Shown: positions 10,484 through 27,197 of the stretch, in pieces | How positions within the stretch are numbered: the stretch's first letter is position 1 | Layout of the letters: each line of letters begins with the position of its first letter | DNA from: Sarea resinae | Lineage: Eukaryota | Assembly (NCBI GenBank): GCA_026026165.1 | Contig: JAPEUD010000017.1 | Coordinates: forward strand, 310,001 to 374,000 | DNA: 64,000 nucleotides | Direction: 5' to 3' | Notes under the pieces: model-generated | What the model was told of the DNA's origin: nothing | Databases searched by the model: none | What the model saw: only the letters and a program-made list of their open reading frames with translations | Position numbers and translations under genes: made by a program

Positions 10484-13400
10484 TTACGACAAATGAAAGG
10501 CACCTTGGCCCTCTTTGATCGCAACTTTGAGTCTCTGGCGCATGATGTTTAAATCGGTATAGTCTGGCAACTTGAGATAATTGACACAAGTCATGACGCT
10601 GGGCAAGTAATCGTCGGATGAGTATGGCGGCTCACTCGGCTTGCAGACGACCGTGAACATTGGAGTGAGGCTTTTGAAACCTGCGGGCTGTCAGTCATGC
10701 ACTACCGGAGAAAAGGTCTATACATACCTCCAATGGGCAATTTCGGACTACCAGTAACAAATTGGAGAAAATCGCGTCTCTCTGCCAAGGAAAGCTCGCT
10801 CATGGTCTGAAGAAGGTTGCGGACACTCTTGCTATCCATGTTAAAGCCATGGTCGGCCTTAATGGAGTCCAGCAAAGCTAGTGAGAGGTTAGTCATCTGC
10901 CCTTATTCTTCATCTTCCACTTGCTTACTTTCAAGTGACCAGTCCTCCTCAATACGGCCGAAGAGCATCACAAGCTCATCAGGCGTGAAGGCACTCAGAG
11001 CCGAGTAGGGGAAGACCTGGGAGAATCCAACTCTGAAAGCGTCCACTTGTTTTTGTACTCCGCTGCCAAGAGTAAGATCTATCACTCTATCGACATAAAG
11101 GCCAACATTTTCAAGTGTAACGGGAATATTTGAACCATTTGGTTGGAGTTCAATAGATGGATAACCAGGCAGAGTAAAGTCCAGGCCTAGATCCTCCACA
11201 TGAACGCCCTGTATTTCCACAGCAGATGCCGCATTAGCTTTTTGGGCAGCAGTCAAGCGGTTGTCCGAATCGATCTTCTTCTTGGCATTTGCAAACTGTT
11301 TGACAAGTACCAAAGATTTAGCAAGGTCCTGGTCGACCGTCTTGACAGCACCCAGGGACGGTGATACTGTCTTAGAGCCGTCGCCAATGCGGAAAAAGGT
11401 CGGATTGAACGACACATCAATGATCCTGGAATCCAGCATAGACCTAGCCACAAACTTCCCGAGTATCTTGAAGAGATTGAGGATTCGTTGACCGTTCTCG
11501 TCCTCGGCTTGGTCCGCGCTCAGTGGAGCAGGAAACAGGCCGCGCTTGCCGAAAGCGTATTCATCCTTGTCATTCGACTCATTTTCTCTCCACAGCTTGA
11601 GCTTCTTTTGGGAAAACTCTTTCGAAACCGTAGAGTAAAACTCAAGGGTAGGGCCGAGGCCTGTACCGACTTCCTCGAAATACTCGACCTCCAAGACGCT
11701 GGGCGATGCGCCATACAGTTCCATAACCTTAACGGCCGACTCAAGGATTCTGGTTCTGGATATCCTAACTTTCTGGCGCTGCAGCCGACCAAGGAAAGGA
11801 CGCTCGTCACGATGACGGTCCTGCCTTGAGTCACTGGTGGATTGGCCATTCTGCCATCGAGTCATGGAGCGCGAGTACCCAAAAGAAGTTGACTGGAGGA
11901 AAAGATGCCTTGTCTCAAAGGGAAAAAGAAAGGGATAGAGACGTGCTAGGTCCTCGCTCCAGCTCGGAAGGCAATTGCTAGCAACAATCAGTGGTTCTTC
12001 GAGCTGGCGGTTAAGCTTCGCGGTAAGCTTAGTATTGACAAATTGTGCTAAAGGTTCAACGTTAAGCGCTATGGCTTCCTTGTTCTCGGCTAACACATCA
12101 TCTAAGTTAGCATTAAGGGCATGCAGGATATTCAGTAGACGAAGAATCATAGATGTCGTTGGGTTCTTGTCGAGAGATACAGGCAGACCAGATGATGTTG
12201 GTTCCGCAATGGTCTCCGGAGGAGGTGTCAATGAGCTAGACTCGGGTGGGGGCGGACCAGAAACGCGCCTGAATTTGATAGTATGAATTGCAGACCACAC
12301 ATTTTTAACCTGAGGCTCCTTTTCTTGAGTCTTGTCGAAATGAACAGCTCTGTATATCGTGGTTTCATTTGAGATCGGCTGATCGTTGATACTGAACTCG
12401 ATATGCCAATCTTGAGGAGTAGTTTGAATGGCTGCAGCATAAGACATTGATCTGCTAGCTGAAGATGGTGTAAGCGCCTGAGGTGTAGGAGTTCGCAAGG
12501 AAGGTGGTGGCTTAAAGACAGAGCCAGAGGCACCAGGATTTTGAGAAGGTGTCGAGATTCTTGTTCCATCTTCCTTTCGTGCGGTCACCTTGCCAGTAGA
12601 AGCAACTTCCATATTTACTGCCGAAGGGTCCACTGCCTCGTCTTCTTCCATGTCATCTTCAAGCTCGCCGACGATAGCGTCCAAAGCACTCCCTTCTTCA
12701 AGATCATCCTCATCTGTCAGCTGCCTCTCATCTGCGCACTCTAGAGGATCTTGAGCCTCGTCTGATGTCTGGACGGGCAAAGGTGGAGTTGGCTGCCTTG
12801 GTGGCTTATTCCTACGGCTAGATCGTCGTGTACCTGCCGGCTTTTCCTGCTGGTCGCTTGTATTCGATTGGGCTGCATTAGCCTTCGTCTTGTCTTTTGA
12901 CTTTGCACTCTTTCGGGTACCACGGCTGGAAGCATTAGCTGGAGCGGCTGGTGGTGTTGAAGGTGATGCTCCTGTACCCGCAAGCCCTCGTTCGGCAAAT
13001 CGTTGATGCGGATTAGGAATGCCAGCAGCGGCAGCAAAGGCTGCGAGAGCACTCGAGACGCCTTCTCGATGTCGAGCGCCACGAGGCCGTTCCGACAAGC
13101 TGATTCGGGGACGCAGATAGTCATCAAGCGCTTTGAAAGTAGCAATGGCATGGATCGAGACCATTATGTTCCGGTAAGACTTAGGAATCTCGGAATCCTC
13201 ATCTGCAATAAGTTTGAGACGAAGTTGCTTGGCTAGCATTGAGGCGGCACTGCTGCGATTGCTATCCAGAGAATTCTGGTGGACCGTGATGACCTCAAAA
13301 TGTTCCGCCCGGCTCAAGAGAACTTGAAGTTTATGGACCAACACACTAAAAGGTGTGGTCGGCGAGTTGCTGCTTGAGGTTCGAGGCCTACTCTGCGTGG

Positions 13401-16347
13401 AGCTTCCCATGAAGACTTCAAGGAAAGTAGTTCGCGCAACAGAACTAGACTTGTCTAAGGTTGATATCGTTAGTCGGTGACTATCAATGCTTGTGATCTT
13501 ACTCACCATCGCTATTGCTAAAAATATCTAGCAGAACTTGCACAATGTCAGAGTTAAGTAATTCAGAGCTCGTGATGCTTTCCAAAGCGTCCCCATCAAA
13601 GAATTTTGCCAAACGGACGAACAAGTCAGTCCCACCGTCACCATTAGAACCTAGATAGCAGGCTTTGATGTCCTGCGCCAAGCTCCGCAAGTCATTCAGG
13701 ATTTTTGCTGCCTTGTTCCGCATGGCATTTCCATGATCGCCCTTCTCGTGCAGCTCAAGAAAGCGCTTGGCACGCATAGCAATGAAGTCTTGAACTTCTG
13801 AGTCGTGCTGTGGGACAGGATAATTCCGCTCGGAAGAAGCTGATGAGCTCTGTGAAGCAGAGAGATCTTCGTTTATGTCATCTTGATCATCTTCGTCCGC
13901 GTCATCCTCTGAGCGGTCATCTTCGTGATTCTGAGTCACTGAATGTTGAGTCTCGGGCTTTTTACTGGACCCAGAAGCTTCGCCGATGTTCTGGAGTGCA
14001 TCTTTGGGGCTGGTCGCGGCTTTGATCTCTTTCGCCTTGTCTTCGATTTTCTTCAACGGGGGATCAGCAAGCTTAGCGATTTCGGCCATTACACCTTCTC
14101 TGTAAAATTGATAGCGGTAAATCGTTTCAAGACGTTTAAGGAGGAGTTCAGCCGCCTGTAGTGCATAGCTGACCAACGACGGGTGGTCTTGCTGAGAGAG
14201 GATTGAAGCCAGGTATGAAGCATACGGTACAGGAGCAAGAGCGGCTTCGAGGATGCCGGAGTCGAAATTAGATAGAATTTTCAGCTGAGCGGTAAGTACC
14301 TTCTGGCGAACACTCAGGTTGACCGTGCTAGAGTAAGCATCTGTAAGGGTGGGCAACAATATAGTGGCGAATCGCTTCAGCTCTGGTTTGCATTTCTCGA
14401 GCAGCTCGATCCTCTTCTTGTTCTTGGACTTCTTCACCTTTGACGAGCCCGGAGTTGGAGTCGAGTCGTCTTCCATATCATCGCCGTCAAAAATATCATC
14501 TAAGTAAGAAAGACCGTCTCGCGAAATGCCTGGAAGTAGTTCGCAAATGACATTGAGCGTTTCAAATATTTGTTCTCTCGGTCTGTGGATTAACGCCTGC
14601 ATGATGACAACGCTATCGATCTTTGATGCCAAGTCATCAGTGCCATTTGGCGGGGATACTCCGGTGAGAATCTGATAGAGAGTATCCACGACATTCATCT
14701 TGAAAAGTTCGACAGACAGAGTAGGACTCGCTCTCGCGGTGATTGCCAAGACACGCAGGAACTGAGTATGTATGTTTGGCCCTATCAGATTAGTCGTTCC
14801 CGGCAGTAACAAGCCGAGTATTGCTCGTAATAGATCCCCGCTGACGAGTTCTTCAAGCTTGTCTGGACGATATTTGAAACTCTCAATGACCCTAGAGACA
14901 CACAAGCACCCTTGCTCCACCACTTTCTGGTCGCTGCTGCTCAAAACATTGAGGAGTATGGGCATGACGTCCCTTATTACGGGGAAAGAATCCTCTGGGA
15001 TATTCCTGCAGCAGTTGGCAGCAGTGGTAACGGCCGTACGCTGAGTGCTTGTAGCAAAAAAGTCGAGGTAGGTCAAGCAAGCCGTCAAGCCGCCCTCGCG
15101 AACGATCGAGGCTGGGAATTCAACGGATATTTTTTCAAGCGTCTAGGACCTGATTAGTGGGTAATGTGATAGATTAAAGGTAGTTGACGTACGCTCAACG
15201 CTTGCTCCGCAAGGTCAATGAAATGGATTTCAAGTAGTTTCTGGCAGAGGATAGGGACCGCTCCACCGTACACAACATTTGCTGTGGAAGAAGGAAGAGC
15301 CTCCATGAGGTTTGCTATGCATCGACATGCAAGAAGCATCATTTCGGGGTTCTCGTCTCCGAAATCATTCGGCTGCATTAGCGTAACAAGCTCTTTCACA
15401 AACTGGTCTGGAGAGAAGTGCCCGGATAGATTATCCTCGGTAGAGACTAGTAGGATCTCAGACAATTCTTGAAGGGCAATCAGCTGCAATGAAGGATCAT
15501 CCTTTTGTTTCAAGTTGTTCAGTATTTCCCGAAGACGAGTGGACATCCCGGACATCATGCCACTGAGAGCACGAAGCGTGCTCGAGAGACCTAATGGAGG
15601 GCCACCTGGCCCACCCAAGTAGCTGCTCTCAAATGGGTCGTCGTCGTCGTCGTCATCCTCCTCAGCAAACTGCCGAGCGAGATGTTCCTCGGGATCCTCA
15701 TCACTTTGTTCGGCTCCAGACTGCTCATCTTTGTCTTCAGCCACAGATTCTTCGGCCTTCTCATCTGCATCCTTCATGGCAACATCCGAGTCTCTCTTGC
15801 TACTTGTTCTTCGAGTACGTCTAGCCGAGGTTGTAGGAACTGGAGTAGCTGCATCTGATGGTAGTCAGCAGAAGGGACAAAGAAGGGATTATTCAGCCGA
15901 GTCACAAACCTTGTGTAGGCTTCTTACTACGACTCGACTTTCGTTTGGAAGTACCAGCAGCAGCAGCAGCAATCTCCTCCGAGGGCCCAGGATTGTTACT
16001 ATGGCAGAGTCAGCATGACGGTCATAGCCTTGAGTCGAGAGTCCAAGTTCCTACCCGGTAGAGGACATGGCCGATGACGGCTTTCCCTTCTTTCGGTGAG
16101 ATGGGGGAGGCGGGGGCGGTGGCGGGTCTGATGCAGAAACTCGTTGCCGCTTCGTCCGTCTCGGAGGAGGTGAGGCTTGGACGGGCTCTGGACTGATGTC
16201 TGGGTTTGGATCTTTTGCAGCTGCAGTCTTGCGTTTCCGAGTTGCTGGAGGAGGCCGAGTGACGTTGGATGCCACCGACGGAGCTGGCGGGGGAGGATTC
16301 GGATCTGCTGCGAGTCTCGCCGACGAGCGAGTGACTCTGGAAGACAT
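10484..16347 (-). CDS. UFD4: HECT E3 ubiquitin ligase Ufd4/TRIP12 family, multi-exon
   Basis: ARM-like region ([29 protein letters not shown]) and [49 protein letters not shown], and catalytic [14 protein letters not shown]...GAFHLS*. Confidence 0.95.
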
Positions 16348-18070
16348 GAGAGTCAATCTCTATTGGCAAGTCCAAACACCATCTAGAACGGCAGAACGGG
16401 AGATCAGGCTGATGAGGCTGGATGACTGAAGATGTGCAAGCTTGAAGCAGCGAGATGGAGGATGTGTTCGCTGCTGTGGCTGACGACGTGGGATGTAGGT
16501 AGATGAGGTAGACAGGTAGACAGGTAGACAAGAAGCAGGACGGGTGTGATCTACCTAGGGAGTGTAACAGAGGAAGAGGTCGAAGTAGAAGATGGAGTGT
16601 CAAACAGTGAGTCGACCGAGGGTTCGGAAGTGGAATTGGTGGAAGCAGCTCTTCGCTTGGGTTGACGAACGGGTCGCTCCATAGACATATGGGACTGCAG
16701 CGCCTCAGGTCACCGCCATACGGGAGGCGGCAAGTCGAAGTGAAGGAGTGACGGGTGGGTATAGATGAAACTCGGATCTGATTAGATGAGAGGTTGACGG
16801 TGAAGGTCGAGGGCAGTGGGAGAGGACATCTGGTGATGGCAGTATCACCTACGCAAGGCCCTCTTGGTGTTGCGTGTGCGTGTGCGTGTGAGTGTGAGTG
16901 AGGATGATCAGTAAGGTAGTAACGTTGCGGTGTCCAGGTCGGCGGAAGGTTAGAGGGCTAGACGGATGGAGGTGTGCCAGCATTCACGGCGACCGATCTG
17001 AACGGACCGGCAAGTCACGTCGCCAACCGTAGTCGACCGTAGTCTCTCCCTGTCCCCTGTCCCGATAAACGCCCCAAGACCCATCCAGGCAGGCGTCTAT
17101 CGTTATCCGTAACTGCACTGCGCTACCCGATCTTATCAGCACTCCGGGCTGAAATTGGCATTCGCTGCTTGCCCTAAGCCCGAGCGTGCTCTACCTTCTG
17201 CCATCACCATTTTGCCTACTCCGTAGAGGCCCACGATATAGATTGACACCTAAAGCACCAACAGTCTTGCGAATATAGTGTTGACAGACCAATCAAAGGC
17301 TCTTGTAAGGAGCCCATGGCTTCTTTTCCGTTTTCAACTCACGAAAAAGATAGTCAGGGCCTAGACAAGTCACAGATTCGACCTGACACTTATTCTTTTC
17401 ACCATCGTCCTCAATTAAAACAAAAAGACGTGTTGCTAACTACGACGAAACCCCTAAGATGCTGGATTATGTGTACCGAGGCTCATATCATCACTCCTCA
17501 AGAACATGCAGCACTGATCCAAGGTGCAGAGAAAGGAGTAGAGAATCATTCAGATTGGAAGCACTCAATACGCCCCCCCACCAGATATTTTGATGCCTAT
17601 CTCATCGGTCCGTCCGAGTGCTAGGGGGTGGTGAGCTTAGGGTACCTAAGGGTAAGGGGAGTTCGGTTGGGGATCGCCATTATTTCTCGCTCGGAGCGGC
17701 GGCAGTATCTTTCTTGTTCAGGGCTTTCCCGTTCGGCTGCGGTAAAGTAAGCAGACCCTGTAGATCTTGCTGTTAAAAAGAACAGAACCTTCAAATCTGG
17801 GACAACTTCCAGGTGCTAAGCCATATCATATATGCGGAAGTATCGAAAACCATGGATCTAAGTGTCAGAAGGGTGAAATTTGCTGGGTACTAGTTACCTA
17901 ATAGTAGGTATCTAAAATACTTATTATTAACCAAGATGACTCTCAGTAATTGCTTTTTGGGATATGCAACATTATGCGTCGTCAAAGTGCTATTTCACAT
18001 GTAGACATATGTACGAAGATATAAAGGGCATTGTATTAAGTAGGAACTTGAGTGAAGTCTTCGAAAGTCT

Positions 18071-19984
18071 TCAAAGGACCTTTACCTTCATCCACTCCGA
18101 CGTGCCAACACCGAGGTTCAAGCCATTGCGCGCCCACCAGGCCCGAACTTTTTCCTCGCCCAGCCCGCCAAGGGAGTCTTCCAGCGCCTCTTCGATATCA
18201 CATGTCTTATACTCAACCTTGAATCCAGACGTCTTCCACCACTCGAGCACATTGCTGTGACCATTCTTGGTAGGGCCTACCAGCACCTGATTGTCGTAGA
18301 TCATCTTTTCCCCCTTTAGTTCTTTCCACAACTGCAAGACACTGACGTGCCCATATGTGGATGCAATTTTGGCCACGGTTTCCTCGTGCGCATAAGGGAT
18401 CCCACTCTCGTCCCACCATCGCACCGTTTCTGCTTGACCCGTTTGTGCTGCGAAACATATTGATTTGCCTACTTTGAGTCGTAATGGACCGCCATATGTG
18501 CTTCCCTCATCATATGAAGGATCAATATTCGTGCTTGACTGAGGGGGATTTGAGGTTGGAGGTCGGATGGCGGTGATACTGGTTGCTCCACTGCGGCTTA
18601 TGCCATACTTTGACGAATCCGACTCGATATGGTAACTCCCTTGATGCATGCTTGCGCCCTTCCACCAGTCTAAGACCTCGATATTACCTTTGGAGCTGGC
18701 CTGTTCCAGTGCCGCTTCAGTGTATCGCATTGGGAGCCCACTTTTGCGCCACCAGTCTAGAACATGTATGAACCCGGCCTTGCTGGCGAGGTCGACAGCC
18801 TCGGGCGTATATTCTCTTGTGAGAAAGGAAGGCGACGTTCGCCACCATTCTAGGACCTCGACTTTGCCAAACACCGCGCTGGATTTGGTTGGAATCAAAG
18901 TGTGACCGAAAGTGGCCCAGAAAAGGTCCTTGTAATTGCTTTCGAGAAATGAGAGCAGCGACGTCCAGGAAAATTTGATAATCAATTTGACACAGAGGCG
19001 AGAGAGGTAAGAAGGTGTTGGTCCAGATTTGAGTTTGGCGGCAACATCTTCGAGCGTGCCTGTAAGGATTGTCATCTCGAGATCTTTCATGAAGTCTTGA
19101 GACTCGTCGAGGTCGGGCGGTCGTTGCCATTCCGGAGGGGTGGGAATGTTGGTGTAGATTCCTAGAGCCCTGGAAACCTCCCAGTCCCCTAGAAAATCCA
19201 GAATGATTGTCCATATCTCAGGAGGAAGCTTGAGCTTAGTCTGACGATCTTGCGCCGTGCCATTGAACGCTGCACCCATTGCCAGGTCGACGTCCTGACC
19301 GATAGTCATTAGGTCGACTTGATTCCGCATGGCCTCAATGAGCTCATCCATCCAGTCCCAGCTAAGTATCTTCTTCTCGGTCTGACCGCGTCTTGACTCG
19401 TAATGCCATAAGACTGGCTGTAACACACGAACCCAATTCCACTTCCGTCGGACTTTGTTGAGTTGTTCTTTGGTCATCGGATTCTCCCACATCAATGTAG
19501 ACATTCCTGGCACCATGAGGATCTTCTTAGAGACATCCCAACTTCGAAGCAACTCAAGTAATAGGTTATCTGTAATTCCATACAACATCTTCGCAAAAGT
19601 ATTGGCATCAATGGGCGCAAGAATGAGTAAGTCGGCCCATTCACTGAGTGTGGCGGCCTCCTCATGGATGAACTCGGCAACCGTGGTGTCGTGATGTTCA
19701 GCGATGCTCCCAAAAGTAACGTTACGGGAGATGAAGTGTCTTCCGAGCTCGGAAGACACATCCTCCCGAGCATCATGATCCAATATCCACTGGAGAGAGA
19801 GATTTCCCTGTTTCGCAAGCCGCCGGACGAGCTTTTCAGCAAACTCCACGGCTGATGGGCCGGTCGAAGCTACAAGGACACGAAGTTTTCGAGGGACATC
19901 TGCTGACTGCATATCGGGTAGGGAGATGGTAGAGTGCGTGCGAGACGCGTTGAGGTGCAGAGGATGGATTATCGGCGCTGCCAT
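18071..19984 (-). CDS. HFCD (Hal3/PPC-decarboxylase-like) flavoprotein domain + F-box-like motif + short ankyrin-like repeats
   Basis: Intronless 637-aa ORF. RVLVASTG; WADLLILAPIDANTFAKMLYGITDNLL; RSWDVSKKILMVPGMSTLMWENP; LPPEIWTIILDFL; repeated A-S/A-x-x-G-x-x-x-V-L-x-W-W units. Confidence 0.85.
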   Translation of the reverse strand: MAAPIIHPLHLNASRTHSTISLPDMQSADVPRKLRVLVASTGPSAVEFAEKLVRRLAKQGNLSLQWILDHDAREDVSSELGRHFISRNVTFGSIAEHHDTTVAEFIHEEAATLSEWADLLILAPIDANTFAKMLYGITDNLLLELLRSWDVSKKILMVPGMSTLMWENPMTKEQLNKVRRKWNWVRVLQPVLWHYESRRGQTEKKILSWDWMDELIEAMRNQVDLMTIGQDVDLAMGAAFNGTAQDRQTKLKLPPEIWTIILDFLGDWEVSRALGIYTNIPTPPEWQRPPDLDESQDFMKDLEMTILTGTLEDVAAKLKSGPTPSYLSRLCVKLIIKFSWTSLLSFLESNYKDLFWATFGHTLIPTKSSAVFGKVEVLEWWRTSPSFLTREYTPEAVDLASKAGFIHVLDWWRKSGLPMRYTEAALEQASSKGNIEVLDWWKGASMHQGSYHIESDSSKYGISRSGATSITAIRPPTSNPPQSSTNIDPSYDEGSTYGGPLRLKVGKSICFAAQTGQAETVRWWDESGIPYAHEETVAKIASTYGHVSVLQLWKELKGEKMIYDNQVLVGPTKNGHSNVLEWWKTSGFKVEYKTCDIEEALEDSLGGLGEEKVRAWWARNGLNLGVGTSEWMKVKVL

Positions 19985-22703
19985 GGCGAACTTCTCGCAG
20001 TATAGCTAAAATCTATCGAGGTATGGAATGCCCTACTCAATCATTAGCTGAAGGTCATGAGAAAGGCCACATATTTCCACTGCTGACGAAGTGCTGCAAG
20101 CCTCATGCGATCCTTGCACATGCCGACTCTCGTAAGGGATTGAATTCTTTGGCGGGGACGCTGGAGTGTGGAAGAGACAACAGCCTCGAAGAGGTAAATT
20201 TACATACTTATTGGTTCGCTGCCAACACCGATTCGCGACAGGAGTTCCAACTAGACCGCTGTCGATTGTCTATCGACTGATTCTGGTCCACCCAAGGGTA
20301 TCATGCAGCTCAGCATAAGACGGTCTGTCCGATGAAGGGTGAAGCTGTCGGAGGTCCCATTGGAAGTATGCGCGATGTGCTGGTCAGGCACATGAAATGA
20401 ATACTAAGGTAGGTATGGATATTCAAAACCTCAGACCGCCTGGTACGAGAGCAGTGTCTACTATCTGAGACTGTAGAGGTACTTATTGTCTACCATTGAC
20501 TCATCGGGCAGCACAGGTACCTTCGTAGTACTCTATAGGTAGTTGTCTCACGGTACGGAGATGATTTAATCTTTTCAAACGGCAATCGAACGTACCTTAT
20601 TTGAGGGACGCACGTATTCTAGTTCACACATCTCAGCACAGAGTAAGGTAGTTGAAAGAAGCTGTTCCCCATCAACTTTGCTAGAGGGTGCTGGCTGATG
20701 ACATTTCTCCAGCACTCTCTATAGCCACCCTGTGCGAGGAACAATGCGTCCGAATACCTCATGAAGCAGAAGCTCACAAGTATGTTCGTTCGGAAGGACC
20801 ATCTGGACAAATTTTCGAGGTCATGATCATATCCGGAAACTCGTCATGATTTTGGTTTGAAGAAATCGGTCTTGTCCCAACGGAATCGTCATTGTCTCTG
20901 GTCTCCAGGAGTGTCATGTTCCAATGAATATTGGGGATTAATTACCCTTGGGGTTCCCCAAGGGGGTTTTCAGCCCTAGGGCGAATCACGCACTACGAAG
21001 TATCTAATATTGCCTTATGGTGGATGCCTCATGAAGAAGCAACGCCCGAGAGTGGCGTCAAGTAGCAGCAGCACACACGTGATGCACGCGTAGCACCCCA
21101 GTCTCCAGGACATTCAAGTGGGGGCGATGATAATGTACCTACCTTTCTATCCGCTGCCATCTTTTCAAATGAAGAAGAAAGTTCGGAGTGGAGAGGCGAT
21201 GCAACTACTTTGCAGTGCTCCGGAGTAATCCATGATCTGGACATTCGCCACACCATCAGCCACACCTTGAGCACGGATACCGCAGTCGATTCAATGCATG
21301 TTGAGATCATATAGCATGATGATGATGTCAAGAGGAGAGGCAAGTTACTAGGTAGGTAGCTTAGTGAGGTGAGTAAGGTAGCCCGAGGAGGTATTTCAGG
21401 TCGAATTAGATAGAAGAGGAACTTTTCACCTACTAGTAGGTACTGAGGTACTGAGGTACTAAGGTGACAGCCCTACTCAGAGTACCTTACGAAGTACTCC
21501 ATGGTCTACTCGGTACCTACAGAGTGCATGTTGAGGTAGGTACGTACCTGTGTTGGAGCAAGTACTTCATACCTACCGAAGGCAAGTCATGTACTCTGTA
21601 GCTGTATCGGGGAGTGGGGTGTGTACCTTGGGTACTTTGTACAGAGTAAGGCACTAAAGACATGATGGGAATTTGCGTCAGTTCGGCAAGGAGCAAGGAG
21701 CAAGACGGTAAAGGCAACGCGAAAAGCAGGGGATTCGAAGCGAATTGCAGATGAGCGTGTGAAAAGTGGATGGAAATGGGACGGAGAAGGGGCTTTCCAT
21801 GACTTCTCCACCTTCAAGTATCTTGCCCTCGGGCTACTACCTACCTAGTACTCTGCCTCGACTCATAGTACAGGAACTACTACCCGTAGCAGATGGTCTA
21901 GTCGGGTCTTTTCCTCAGGGGGGCTGCCTTTCAGGAAATACCCGACATCCATCAAGATGCGCCCTGGGGGGATCTGATCCCCATGGCTGCGGTACTACTG
22001 TGAGTAGAGTAAAGTACAGACGCTCATCTCCCTCCCCCATCACCATTCCCGCCTTATGACCACCAGAGTGAGCAACCTTGAAGGCACCGATAGGGTACTA
22101 GGTATGATACGGATCTGAGAGACCTCAGGACGAGTAGGGTAACTTGCGGGAGTTTCGAGTCTCGACTACTCCGTACTCTTCTCCGTACTCTTCTCATCTG
22201 AGTCTGCGTCCTCTCCCCAAAGACTGGCCAAGGTATATGTGTAGAGGGAATGATTGGGAAGTGTTTGCTCGAGGGCTCCATCGCTCAAGAAACGTCTCCT
22301 GTAGGCAGTCTCCACTGGGCGCACACACACACACGATCGGATTTCAGACTTGACTTCCTTCCAACTTACCTTACCTTACTGCTTTCCTAGTAGAACCGAC
22401 TACGGCCCACAAAGGCTGTACCTCCCTTCGAATTCGACACTCCCGCGGTCGTGTCAGTCACCCTCCACATACCACGGGACCCTCGGACCTGTTACCGTGC
22501 TACATAGTACGCTCTCGTCCATCCGAGTCAACTTCATCAACACCACCTACGCTCTTCGTTCGAGTCCCGTACCACAAATATTGCTTGACCTCTGGCCTCT
22601 TTTCGCGGCCTTTCGGCCGCTTCCACGGTCCCTGCCGGCCAACAATAACGCACCCCAATCGCACGTCGCAAGAGTTACAAGGCAAGAGGGACTTTGATCA
22701 AAC

Positions 22704-25700
22704 ATGCCCGACGACGACCTCCAACCGTCGTCTGGTCTATCACAACCCGATCATGTAGACCAGAGGCCGCTCGGGTTGGGGTTGCGTGGCGATGAAGTTT
22801 CACCAGAGGACACCCTAGATCCGCAAGCCACGGATCCAACAATCGACACGCCGGAGGCACCGTCCGACACTACCCACAGACCAGTGCCCCGCACTGCCGG
22901 CCAAGAAGACCCCCCTCCTCCATCACCAGCAGTATCAGAGCTCTCTGCCAGCCAATCCAGGTCAATGGCATCGGACAGAGTCTTCCCGATTCGGTCCGTT
23001 ATCAAGGTCGACCCAAACTTGAAGCCCCATGTTTATCCGGACACTGCAAACGCCGAAGAATCTCCGTTTGACGACTCTAGTCGTCACTCGAGTAGGTCGC
23101 GACCATCGCAGAGCCCTGGTCGGCGAAAGCCTTCTCGATCAGAAGTCGATATGCCGCCGAGGCCGCATAAGCCAAGATCTTCCTCTCGGAGAGGATCAGC
23201 TTCTACGGTTAGCCACAGAGGCAGACCAGAAAACCCACGGCCTCTTGAGATAAACACAGACTCTGCGTCCACGAAATCTGAGCGCATGGATAGCGCCGGT
23301 AGCCGCCAGGGTTCTTCTCATGCAAGCTCCGTCAAGAGTCCTCGTTCCGCAAAAGATTCTGATACTGGTGATCTTTACACCTCACGATTCAAACACGTTC
23401 TCACCGAAGAAGGGCACGCCGTGATCACTGGTCGCGACGGGGACAGGTTGCAACGGTGTGAAGATGAGCCTATTCACATACCAGGAGCTATTCAGGGCTT
23501 CGGCGTATTAGTAGCGCTCCAAGAAGAGGGTGAGGGAAAGTTGGTTGTGCGAGTCGTCAGCGAAAATTCAAAGCGACTGCTAGGGCATACGCCAAGGCAG
23601 CTCTTCGAGCTCGAAAGCTTCAGTGAAATTTTCTCGGACGAACAGGCTGATAATCTCTTTGATCATATCGACTTCATTCGAGACGATGACGTTGATCCCG
23701 CCACTAATGGGCCAGAGGTTTTCACCATATCGATCAAGATTCCACATCGAAGGTCACAAAAATTATGGTGCGCTATGCACGTCAACGAAGCGGATCCGAG
23801 TCTTATTATATGTGAATTTGAGCTCGAGGATGACCAGCTGTATCCTTTAGTTCCCGCCGAAAATGAGACGCCGCAGCCGCCGCAGGATACGTTGGACAGT
23901 ACTCCGACCGAGGAGGAGTACACAGAAAGTACGGAGAACATTAGCAAGCCGCTTCGAGTGCTCCGAAGCGCTAGGAAACGGAGGGGAGAAGCAGCGGCAA
24001 TGGAAGTGTTCAACATCTTATCCCAAGTACAGGAGCAACTTGCTGGCGCGCCCAACTTAGAGAAGTTCTTGAAGATCCTCGTTGGTGTCGTCAAAGAGTT
24101 GACAGGCTTCCATCGTGTCATGATCTATCAATTTGATCAGAGCTTCAACGGCAAAGTTGTGACCGAGCTTGTAGATCCTCGGGCTACGAAAGATCTATAT
24201 CATGGTTTGCACTTCCCGGCATCTGATATACCAAAGCAGGCCCGAGACATGTACAAGGTTAACAAAGTTCGCCTCCTCTACGACAGGGATCAAGAGACGT
24301 CAAGACTGGTCTGCCGTACGGTTGAGGACTTAGAAAGTCCGCTAGATCTCACTTATGCATATCTCAGGGCTATGTCTCCCATACACATCAAGTACTTGGG
24401 CAACATGGCAGTACGGTCCTCAATGTCCATATCGATCAATGCTTTCAACGAGCTTTGGGGGCTTGTCTCGTGTCACGCTTATGGCTCGAAAGGCACGCGC
24501 GTTTCGTTCCCCATACGCAAGATGTGTCGTCTAGTAGGAGATGCAGCTTCCAGGAACATTGAGAGGCTATCTTATGCTTCGCGTCTTCAAGCCCGGAAAC
24601 TCATCAACACGGCTCCTACCGAAAAAAACCCTTCTGGCTACATCATAGCTTCATCAAACGATTTGCTCAAGCTTTTCGATGCTGATTTTGGCCTCCTGTG
24701 CATCAAGGATGAGACGAAGATACTTGGCAAGATCGACGAGTCACAAGAGCTTCTGGTCATGTTGGAGTATCTTCGAATGCGCAAGTTCACATCCGTTATG
24801 ACTTGCAATGACATTAATGAGGAATTCCCCGATCTCAAATACTCACCAGGATTCAAGTTGCTTGCCGGACTACTCGTCGTTCCTTTATCTGTGGGAGGCT
24901 ATGATTTCATCGTCTTCTTTCGAAGGGGTCAGTTGAAGGAAGTTAAATGGGCCGGTAATCCTTATGAGAAGTTTATCAGACAGGGAACAGAAGGCTACCT
25001 GGAACCTCGAAAGAGCTTCAAAACCTGGCGTGAGACTGTCGTTGGAAAATGTCGGGAGTGGACAGAAGATCAGATCGAAACCGCGGCGGTCCTTTGTCTG
25101 GTCTATGGAAAATTCATTGAAGTCTGGAGGCAAAAAGAGAAGGCGATGCAGAACAGTCAGCTCACAAGAATTCTGCTTGCCAACTCTGCGCACGAAGTCC
25201 GAACGCCGCTCAACGCTATCATCAACTACCTTGAGATTGCCTTGGAAGGAGCCGTGGATTCAGAGACACGAGACAATCTTCTGAAATCTCACTCTGCGTC
25301 TAAATCTCTGATATACGTCATCAACGATCTTCTAGACCTGACCAGGACAGAAAATGGCAATGATCTCATCCGAGACGAGGCTTTTGAACTGATGGCGACA
25401 GTCAGAGAAGCCGTAGGTATGTTCAGTGGTGATGCCAAACGGAAGAATATCGACTACGACCTGGTTGAGCATCCAGGCCTTCCACATATAGTTATTGGAG
25501 ATCAGCGCCGGGTCCGTCAGGTCGTTTCAAACGTGACGGCAAATGCCATCCAGCACACCTCTCAAGGAGGTGTGAAAATTGAGATATGGCAAGCTTCGCG
25601 GATAGCAAATCGGGCGGAGATTGAGATCTCAATTCAGGATACTGGAGTAGGTATGTCGAACAAGAAGCTTGATGCCTTGTTTAGAGAGTTGGAGCAAGTG

Positions 25701-27197
25701 CAATCCGAAAGTCATGATGTGGACATACTGCAAGATTCCATGCCATCAGAGTCGAAGGCACTTACCGAAGGTGAACAGGGAAAGACTACACTGGGTCTCG
25801 GCTTGGCAGTAGTTGCAAGAATAATTCGGACAATGAATGGCCAACTCAGGCTTAGCTCAGAAGAGAGCAAGGGGTCAAATTTTATTATTCAACTCGGTTT
25901 CGATCTCCCGGACAGCTCAGAGGGTCAGGAGCCGTTGCCTCAGATAGCTGAGCCTGTTACTCCATCAACTCCGCCGGCTACTGACGAAGGGATGATACTC
26001 GTTCGTAGTCGAAGTCCCCGGCCGCTGTCGCCGAGTGATGGACGTGGACAACTTTCACGAAAGGACAGTGGTGACAGTGTCTACAGTAGGAAGAGCTTGA
26101 GAAGCCTTTCTAGTGCTAGAAGCGCAAAAAGTGACGTTGACAGGCTCATTGACGCCATTCAGGAGCCGCACCTGCTTGAGAGGTCGCACTCTCAAGATGA
26201 GGGAGCGCTGATATACTCACCAAGCAAAACCAACCCTGAAACACGATCAGAAAGGCACACTGCACTGATATCGGCTCACAAAGGTCCTAACAACCAGAAC
26301 GAAGCTCATTGGGAGGGATCGCAAGCTGTCTCTGCATTATCTGGAAACCTGAAATCCGCAATGCTTCCTCCAGGTCAGAAGAAGATCGTAGATACCAAGA
26401 CGCCACTCAAACCCGTGAAGGTTCCGGATAATTTTGAGTCATCACAGCTGAAGCCTGGCTCTCATCCAGCTCCGAGGGCTATGTTCGAAGCGTCTGACAG
26501 AGAGACTGATCAAAGGGTTGTCGAGCATAAGATGGCTGAACCTCTCAATAACAATCGATTACGTATCTTGGTAGCGGAAGATGACCTGGTTAACAGCAAA
26601 ATTATCAAGAAACGACTCGAGAAAATTGGCCATGATGTTTACCTGACCGTGAATGGAGAGGAATGTGCCAGCGCATATGGAGACAGTCCAGGTTCTTTCG
26701 ATGTTGTTCTGATGGACATGCAGGTAAGGTCTAGTCCTAGAGCATCGTTCAAGTTTATCTGATTACTTGCTAAATTTTTTGGTCAGATGCCGATCGTGGA
26801 CGGGCTCGCTTCAGTTAAGATGATTCGATCTTTTGAAAAAGCACGCAATCCCGACATATTATCGCCCCATGCTGCACTAAATGGCCGAATACCAATATTT
26901 GCAGTCTCGGCTTCGCTTCTCGAGAAAGACCGGCGAACCTATGTTGACTGCGGTTTCGATGCCTGGATTCTCAAGCCCATAGATTTCAAGCGTCTAAATC
27001 TGCTGTTAGAGGGAATCATTGATGGCAGGGTCCGCGAAGATTCATTGTATGTTCCTGGAAAATGGGAACGGGGTGGTTGGTTTGGTATAAAGAGATCGGG
27101 TGCACATGATCTTGACACTTCTCCATCTGGACGCCATACTCCGGCTCTTGATGGAATGCCTGAAGATCCGTTCACGGACGTCAAGCCACCCCCTTGA
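22704..27197 (+). CDS. fphA: Fungal phytochrome (PAS-GAF-PHY-HisKA-HATPase-REC), one intron 26724-26786
   Basis: Bilin-attachment RCEDEPIHIPGAIQ; GAF PASDIP and SPIH; PHY WAGNP/PRKSF; HisKA HEVRTPLNAI; DTGVGM; REC VAEDD...LMDMQ/MP; C-terminal WERGGWF. Confidence 0.97.

Follow-up and report, generated by a model that had tools for sequence, protein, structure and literature searches.

What does a fungal protein do that joins a flavoprotein-type domain, a short motif resembling the start of an F-box and a long array of ankyrin-like repeats in a single chain? This question is raised by a gene on the minus strand of a 64-kb window of the Sarea resinae genome (the whole stretch of DNA analysed here, 64,000 nucleotides), which a first-pass annotation had read as a possible fungal analogue of plant ZEITLUPE. 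Our analysis showed that the architecture of the encoded protein, i.e. an HFCD (Hal3/CoaC/EpiD) fold followed by an LPxEI element and by ankyrin-like repeats, is real, and it led us to another view of how these parts may be used. The protein is probably a conserved adaptor of the Pezizomycotina, composed of a trimerising pseudo-HFCD domain, the LPxEI element and a target-binding ankyrin solenoid. In such an adaptor, the HFCD-like domain would trimerise the protein, the LPxEI element would recruit Skp1 and thereby yield a trimeric receptor of the Skp1-Cul1-F-box (SCF) type, and the solenoid, together with a conserved tail, would bind the targets, which, judging from gene order, may relate to phytochrome signalling.

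Architecture and distribution of the family

The gene and its parts are located in the window as follows (aa, amino acids; PPCDC, phosphopantothenoylcysteine decarboxylase; pLDDT, predicted local distance difference test).

18071 to 19984, minus strand: whole gene, an intronless open reading frame (ORF) of 637 aa plus stop, uninterrupted from ATG to stop and with full-length orthologs
19280 to 19897, minus strand: HFCD/PPCDC-fold domain, aa 30-235, apparently catalytically dead and predicted to be a homotrimer (Pfam, PDB, Foldseek and residue counts)
19487 to 19510, minus strand: PGMSTLMW, the counterpart of the PXMNXXMW motif with the catalytic Asn changed to Ser (M165 kept in 28 and W166 in 30 of 30 orthologs)
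19106 to 19234, minus strand: F-box-like element, aa 251-293, with an LPPEIW helix, a GDWE turn, a second helix and a Pro-rich stretch holding the invariant W286
18647 to 19105, minus strand: N-terminal block of the solenoid, aa 294-446, three WW units (helix pairs with pLDDT >90; fold alignment to ankyrin domains)
18470 to 18646, minus strand: insertion within the solenoid, aa 447-505, disordered (pLDDT <50), mean column conservation 0.27
18119 to 18469, minus strand: C-terminal block of the solenoid, aa 506-622, four WW/LW units and the invariant CDIEEALED (model, conservation)
18074 to 18118, minus strand: tail, aa 623-637, NLGVGTSEWMKVKVL, the best-conserved region of the protein (column mean, 0.86), kept in basidiomycete relatives

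The full protein was compared with 5.8 billion proteins, and of the candidates that were scored, 741 qualified as relatives at E ≤ 0.001. The best 120 were all full-length, with 51-63% identity, and the named sources among them are Lecanoromycetes, Leotiomycetes, Dothideomycetes, Geoglossomycetes and allied Pezizomycotina. In the databases these 120 proteins go by the names of hypothetical protein, flavoprotein or PPCDC(-like). Thirty of them were aligned (mean column identity, 47%), and this alignment is the basis of the residue counts given throughout. The family is conserved but unstudied in fungi: a literature search for a fungal protein joining a flavoprotein domain, an F-box and ankyrin repeats found nothing on it among the papers listed, and no F-box protein with a flavoprotein domain is named in the main text of two fungal F-box inventories (PMC9744329 and PMC7991009), although a family member could appear in their supplementary tables.

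When the C-terminal module alone (aa 240-637) was searched against 1.84 billion cluster representatives, 2391 matches were obtained at E ≤ 0.001, and among those listed the majority have the WW-type repeats in common and nothing more. A subset, however, keeps everything from the LPxEI element to the tail behind different N-termini, which are of three types; (i) no N-terminal domain at all, in P0144 and P0173 from Rhodotorula, (ii) a SAP-like N-terminus, in P0140, P0142, P0146, P0149, P0166 and P0225 as well as in Agaricomycete proteins named 'SAP domain-containing', and (iii) a glutathione S-transferase N-terminal domain (GST_N), placed before the F-box-like and ankyrin module in P0212. The basidiomycete and Rhodotorula relatives (P0173, P0140, P0146 and their kin) harbor the same LPxEI..DWEL element, WW-ankyrin solenoid, CDIEEALED string and tail, at 33-41% identity in the element and 35-40% across the module, whereas a SAP-like N-terminus or none takes the position of the HFCD domain, and these proteins, too, are uncharacterised. 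The module thus predates its fusion to the HFCD domain. Since relatives carry SAP, GST or nothing at this position, the N-terminal domain is exchangeable, which argues against a role as the core sensor and makes the HFCD domain look like an accessory oligomerisation domain. One further relative, P0139 (433 aa), has an odd composition with much V, L, W and K, shows FF in place of LP, and gives the impression of a family member that has decayed or been mistranslated.

The F-box-like element and the ankyrin solenoid

The string LKLPPEIWTIILDFLGDWEVSRAL, which the first-pass annotation had taken for the start of an F-box, is located at aa 251-274. Conservation of its LPxEI core in orthologs is strict, in that L253, P254, E256, W258, D267, W268 and E269 are invariant in 30/30 aligned sequences and I261 is almost so; even in paralogues of just 33-41% identity the LPPEIW..DWE motif is near-invariant. 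Two helices (255-265 and 268-274) are predicted, with pLDDT values of 82-96 in a model of the module built from a 47-sequence alignment. In sequence and spacing the element resembles the first half of an F-box; the spacing fits, over about 24 positions, what we take to be the F-box consensus, and, as is usual for F-boxes, a repeat domain follows immediately.

Several weak signals point in the same direction. Thirty of the 150 listed module relatives, chosen because their match starts at the element or covers the tail, together with the top repeat proteins, were scanned with Pfam (24 of the 150 lay outside all Pfam scans). Partial F-box-like matches, spanning profile positions 2/3 to 20/22 of 47 and all below the gathering score, were seen in three of these paralogues: in P0212 (6.8e-4) and P0146 (0.095) the match falls exactly at the homologous place, while in P0137 (3.2e-4) it lies at the protein's own N-terminus, before the WW-ankyrin repeats. 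P0212 also gave a weak match to PRANC (0.026). A profile made from 13 element segments retrieved three PDB chains at E ≤ 10, one of which is the F-box of FBXL5, in register (E 0.8). In a language-model comparison, F-box clusters scored highest among the named neighbours of aa 247-296 (0.80 and 0.76), scores that by the tool's own figures amount to leads only. In addition, a 601-aa gene model from a Geoglossum simile metagenome-assembled genome (P0219) begins with the LPxEI element followed by the first repeats (together aa 14-177) and continues with an unrelated middle part and a C-terminal Skp1-like domain (aa 487-590); of the 32 PDB matches of P0219 at E ≤ 1, 31 are Skp1 (best, 4.4e-7).

A number of observations weigh against the F-box assignment. 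No Pfam F-box family (PF00646, PF12937) matches the window protein at E ≤ 10, any of the 30 orthologs at E ≤ 1, or any of 96 remoter WW-ankyrin relatives at E ≤ 0.01, and a precomputed F-box family is assigned to none of the 120 listed orthologs and none of 120 listed basidiomycete relatives. As a single sequence, aa 240-315 found no F-box in the PDB, the lone match being a glutaredoxin (E 1.1), and the FBXL5 match lies below significance. Just two helices are predicted, a Pro-rich stretch occupying the position of the third F-box helix, and the module model packs the element confidently into the solenoid domain, so that a capping repeat is possible. The fusion to Skp1 is a singleton, no second copy having appeared in a search with P0219, and it may be a merged gene model. 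The fold searches with the module model barely covered its residues 1-54 and are silent on an F-box fold. Taken together, of the F-box proposed at aa 251-276, the LPxEI element and its placement before the repeats hold, while a Pfam F-box match is lacking in the protein and in its 30 orthologs. On these sequence comparisons, F-box identity of the element is plausible; that it would recruit Skp1, making the protein an SCF substrate receptor, is a possibility which we place slightly below even.

The alternative that survives best is a scaffold unconnected with SCF, in which the LPPEIW..DWE stretch would be the N-terminal capping helix pair of the solenoid and the protein a trimeric ankyrin scaffold with no part in a ubiquitin ligase. 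Its attraction lies in the module model, where element and repeats form one compact domain (predicted template modelling score, 0.82), in a few ankyrin structural alignments that start at model residues 28-33, within the element, and in the failure of all searches of the protein, its orthologs, the PDB and remoter relatives to return a significant F-box match. The compact packing in itself, however, fits an F-box on its linker or a capping repeat alike. Seven residues invariant in 30/30 orthologs represent a stricter conservation than that of ordinary capping repeats, and the presumed consensus spacing, the weak database signals, which all lead towards F-boxes and none elsewhere, and the one fusion to a Skp1-like domain likewise speak against this reading. 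We regard this scaffold as possible but rather unlikely.

The repeats themselves are, by the model, ankyrin repeats. The first-pass annotation had counted about seven ankyrin-like units ending in WW or LW; seven such units are present, and all five strings that it quoted were located (aa 396-412, 425-441, 509-524, 538-553 and 570-583). The model contains some 9-10 helix pairs, the seven WW/LW strings corresponding to the outer helices of seven repeats preceded by 2-3 degenerate ones. Model residues 55-394 (aa 294-633) align with the ankyrin domain of Espin1 (Espin1-AR, 5et0) at Z 15.4 over 258 residues, with a root-mean-square deviation of 3.4 A; 84 chains in all reach Z ≥ 8 against the module model, and those listed are nearly all ankyrin domains. 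By sequence, Ank_4 scores 16.1 bits in the window protein, below its cut-off of 22.7, while it is detected in 23 of the 30 orthologs at E ≤ 1 (best, 4.5e-6) and in 96/96 remoter relatives. In a fold search with the module model, giant-virus proteins account for 89 matches at E ≤ 0.001 (down to E 3e-9), the best 50 being nearly all named ankyrin proteins.

Ankyrin repeats beside a two-helix LPxE-type element are known from poxviral ANK/PRANC proteins and from the Anks of Orientia, which carry truncated F-boxes. According to the accessible part of PMC4353913, the two-helix F-boxes of poxviral ankyrin proteins still bind Skp1, the contacts being made mostly by the first helix and the preceding loop. 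In poxviruses the element is C-terminal to the repeats, whereas in the window protein it is N-terminal, has no Pfam match, and its Skp1 binding is putative. If the LPxEI element does bind Skp1, the family would provide a cellular ankyrin protein with a two-helix F-box, a class known mainly from poxviruses and intracellular bacteria, and one that escapes profile-based F-box inventories.

The HFCD-like domain as a probable trimerisation module

The HFCD fold that the first-pass annotation saw at aa ~33-220 is borne out by three kinds of comparison. The Pfam Flavoprotein family (PF02441) matches aa 35-186 above its gathering score (E 7e-16; 58.7 bits, cut-off 22.7) and also matches 30/30 orthologs; the closest PDB sequences are human PPCDC (1qzu, 2.8e-18) and AtHAL3a (2.1e-16); and with the full model as query, Foldseek ranks 1mvn, 1e20 and 1qzu highest (E 9e-8 to 3e-7; template modelling score by target, 0.68-0.73). 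By fold or sequence, the relatives of the domain are PPCDC, EpiD, MrsD and UbiX. It belongs with the PPCDC/HFCD flavoproteins (AtHAL3a, 1mvl/1e20; human, 1qzu; Cryptococcus Hal3, 6eoa) in both fold and sequence family, and it retains their core WADLL...AP.DANT...P.M..MWENP. Within this core, WENP and the PXM.XXMW frame are invariant or almost so, and the APIDANT stretch (PxxANT-like) is kept, human PPCDC likewise having a D there (APLDANT).

Conservation is unevenly distributed along the domain, averaging 0.81 per column at aa 112-192 and 0.39 at aa 30-111. A three-copy prediction of aa 30-235 scored 0.86, the best of three controls scoring 0.00. The three trimer runs have at least 85% of their contacts in common, with partner pLDDT values of at least 81, and in a benchmark 21 of 30 proteins solved as one-chain pairs attained the mark, as against none of 23 single-chain proteins. 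The predicted interface (residues 127-138, 144-151 and 162-174) lies in the conserved stretch; as in PPCDC/HFCD flavoproteins, the predicted trimer would form via this conserved surface. Since the best-kept part of the domain is the predicted subunit interface, the HFCD-like domain is most likely a trimerisation module that makes the protein a homotrimer. Against this, HFCD trimers are among the solved structures, which the model may simply have reproduced, and the score shows likeness, not binding.

The active site tells a different story from the fold. PPCDC activity requires, as stated in the accessible part of PMC9604783, His90, the PXMNXXMW-motif residues Asn142 and Met145, and Cys175 (AtHAL3a numbering). 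The equivalent of His90 is A110, and among the 30 orthologs this position is A in 23, V in 3, and L, I, T and S in 1 each, never H. The equivalent of Asn142 is S162 (S, n = 17; T, n = 13; N, n = 0). The Cys175 clamp is unaligned, as the profile alignments to 1mvl and 1qzu end at AtHAL3a 155 and human PPCDC 159, respectively; the sole Cys conserved in at least 60% of the 30 orthologs, C114, lies away from the place of Cys175, and there is none in the clamp region. Moreover, the N-terminal G-S-V-A loop, which in PPCDCs holds the phosphate of flavin mononucleotide (FMN), aligns to a variable stretch with Ser at the aligned position in only 3/30 orthologs. With the catalytic His, Asn and Cys lost, aa 30-235 read as a pseudoenzyme, and catalysis by the domain appears very unlikely. 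Because the G-S-V-A loop is degenerate but AP(I/L)DANT is kept, FMN binding is uncertain. The window protein further differs from PPCDCs in the approximately 400 additional residues to which the domain is fused. The family is widespread in Pezizomycotina and has relatives across Basidiomycota. Its database label 'phosphopantothenoylcysteine decarboxylase' is misleading; reading the PPCDC-like domain as a pseudoenzyme would correct this annotation and add a case of an HFCD domain reused for oligomerisation.

Such reuse has a parallel in yeast Hal3 and Vhs3, HFCD subunits with a partial catalytic set that form mixed trimers and serve in phosphatase regulation, and thus in protein-protein regulation and oligomerisation (accessible part of PMC9604783). 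In a variant of the scaffold considered above, which we mention as a possibility, the HFCD-like domain would enter mixed assemblies with genuine PPCDC subunits or, like yeast Hal3, bind a phosphatase of the Ppz type. Hal3 and Vhs3, however, still have the catalytic His and supply part of a mixed active site, whereas the window family keeps none of the three residues, and Hal3 has an acidic tail and neither an F-box-like nor an ankyrin part, of which the window protein has both.

Where this leaves the sensor proposed by the first-pass annotation, in which a flavin, redox or coenzyme A-pathway signal at the HFCD domain gates substrate ubiquitination, can now be stated. The order of flavin-type domain, F-box(-like) element and repeat domain does mirror that of plant ZEITLUPE (ZTL), FKF1 and LKP2, and APIDANT together with M165 and W166 is kept. 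The plant proteins are, however, built from LOV and Kelch domains as against HFCD and ankyrin, no part being homologous, and nothing here is evidence of photochemistry. A Pfam search of the window protein at E ≤ 10 returned no PAS/LOV or Kelch family, the folds found being HFCD and ankyrin. The HFCD fold is distinct from a LOV domain and is not known to have a photocycle. The degenerate phosphate loop, the lack of any equivalent of the catalytic His or Asn in 30/30 orthologs, the unaligned clamp and the poorly conserved N-terminal half of the domain all speak against such a sensor, and an essential one would not be swapped as freely for SAP, GST_N or no domain as is seen in the relatives. The ZEITLUPE-like logic is therefore improbable, and a light-sensing role of the HFCD domain itself was rejected. 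Weaker still, the idea of a working flavin-dependent decarboxylase whose specificity has changed and which the ankyrin repeats tether to its targets could draw on the matches to PPCDC, EpiD, MrsD and UbiX and on the kept PXM.XXMW frame and WENP, but it is very improbable, as the three residues needed for both PPCDC half-reactions (accessible part of PMC9604783) are missing and the substrate clamp is unaligned. A genuine PPC decarboxylase was likewise rejected, all three catalytic residues being absent.

Pairing with a phytochrome gene and surroundings of the locus

Upstream of the putative adaptor gene lies a phytochrome gene, in head-to-head orientation.

22698 to 27197, plus strand: phytochrome gene, PAS_2-GAF-PHY-HisKA-HATPase_c (Pfam), with a spliced intron at 26721-26783
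19985 to 22697, no strand assigned: divergent intergenic region between the gene and the phytochrome gene, a putative shared promoter

Gene order was analysed in 66 metagenome loci encoding orthologs, which were searched with the window's neighbours. A phytochrome adjoins the ortholog in 23 of them; in 21 it is upstream on the opposite strand, with its N-terminal end towards the start of the gene and 1.25-2.5 kb between the aligned parts, and in 2 it is found 6.9 kb downstream on the same strand. It is absent from 16 loci with at least 3 kb of upstream sequence, and 27 loci are too short to judge. Clustering of the loci at 85% protein identity gave 15 informative clusters, of which 6 show the head-to-head pair and 9 are without it, none being mixed, and one further cluster represents the downstream arrangement. 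Together with the window, the pair thus occurs in seven lineages, whose proteins are 48-74% identical to each other and which, among named organisms, come closest to lecanoromycetes (Imshaugia, 64-68%) and dothideomycetes (Hortaea, 77%; Neofusicoccum, 60%).

The HECT ligase gene that flanks the other side of the gene in the window served as a control: 20 loci extend for at least 8 kb in that direction, and it turned up in none of them. Furthermore, an all-against-all comparison of the ORFs of six head-to-head representatives showed that common to all are only the phytochrome ORFs, the gene itself and opposite-strand shadows. With the HECT gene absent from these 20 loci and phytochrome the sole common neighbour, the pairing has been specifically retained where general synteny is gone. 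Further genes are shared downstream of the ortholog by three lecanoromycete-like loci (L041, L048 and L052), and two of these genes lie upstream in a dothideomycete-like locus without phytochrome (L012), suggesting rearrangement around the gene.

As the divergent pairing with phytochrome recurs in several distant lineages, the targets of the proposed adaptor may lie in red-light signalling. Adjacency is a matter of gene order and does not demonstrate function, and 9 of the 15 informative lineage clusters lack the pair. Among the papers listed in a literature search, nothing was found on this pairing, and the accessible part of a 2023 review (PMC10813442) names no physical partners of FphA besides VeA and LreB. 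With the conserved divergent pair, a specific protein can be proposed as a partner still missing from red-light signalling in fungi, and the link becomes testable. A bolder version, in which the protein would be an undescribed component of that pathway, i.e. a trimeric truncated-F-box adaptor co-regulated with phytochrome through the shared divergent promoter and controlling how stable phytochrome or its partners are or how they assemble, we consider unlikely; if true, it would be a fungal counterpart, made from different parts, of the plant photoreceptor-linked E3 adaptors. The sole ORF within the intergenic region (21029-21472, minus strand, 147 codons) is without a match in Pfam or in any of the 66 loci, and is probably not a gene.

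RNA support comes from a single metatranscriptome run, the only one to contain part of the gene (share, 0.26). Its near-identical contigs span 17966-18768 without a gap, corresponding to the 3' untranslated region and the last ~230 codons, and leave 18769-19984 uncovered, which is uninformative either way. The same run covers the phytochrome gene in part, and one contig splices out a 63-nt GT..AG intron (26721-26783), joining the last exon of that gene, so that RNA of Sarea resinae or a very close organism must have been present.

Judging from a Pfam scan of 25 long ORFs, the window resembles ordinary fungal chromosome; its genes include those for a Ysc84/SH3 protein, a CUE/DUF1771 protein, a TRIP12-like HECT ligase, the phytochrome, an FF/WW protein, a proteasome subunit, an inositol monophosphatase, a NuBaID zinc-finger protein and an SNF2 helicase; no Skp1 gene was seen among these 25 ORFs. 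The large TRIP12/Ufd4-like HECT ubiquitin ligase (10903-16957, minus strand) comprises four long ORFs with the HECT domain and TRIP12-type TPR repeats, presumably split by introns, and is separated from the 3' end of the putative adaptor gene by 1.1 kb.

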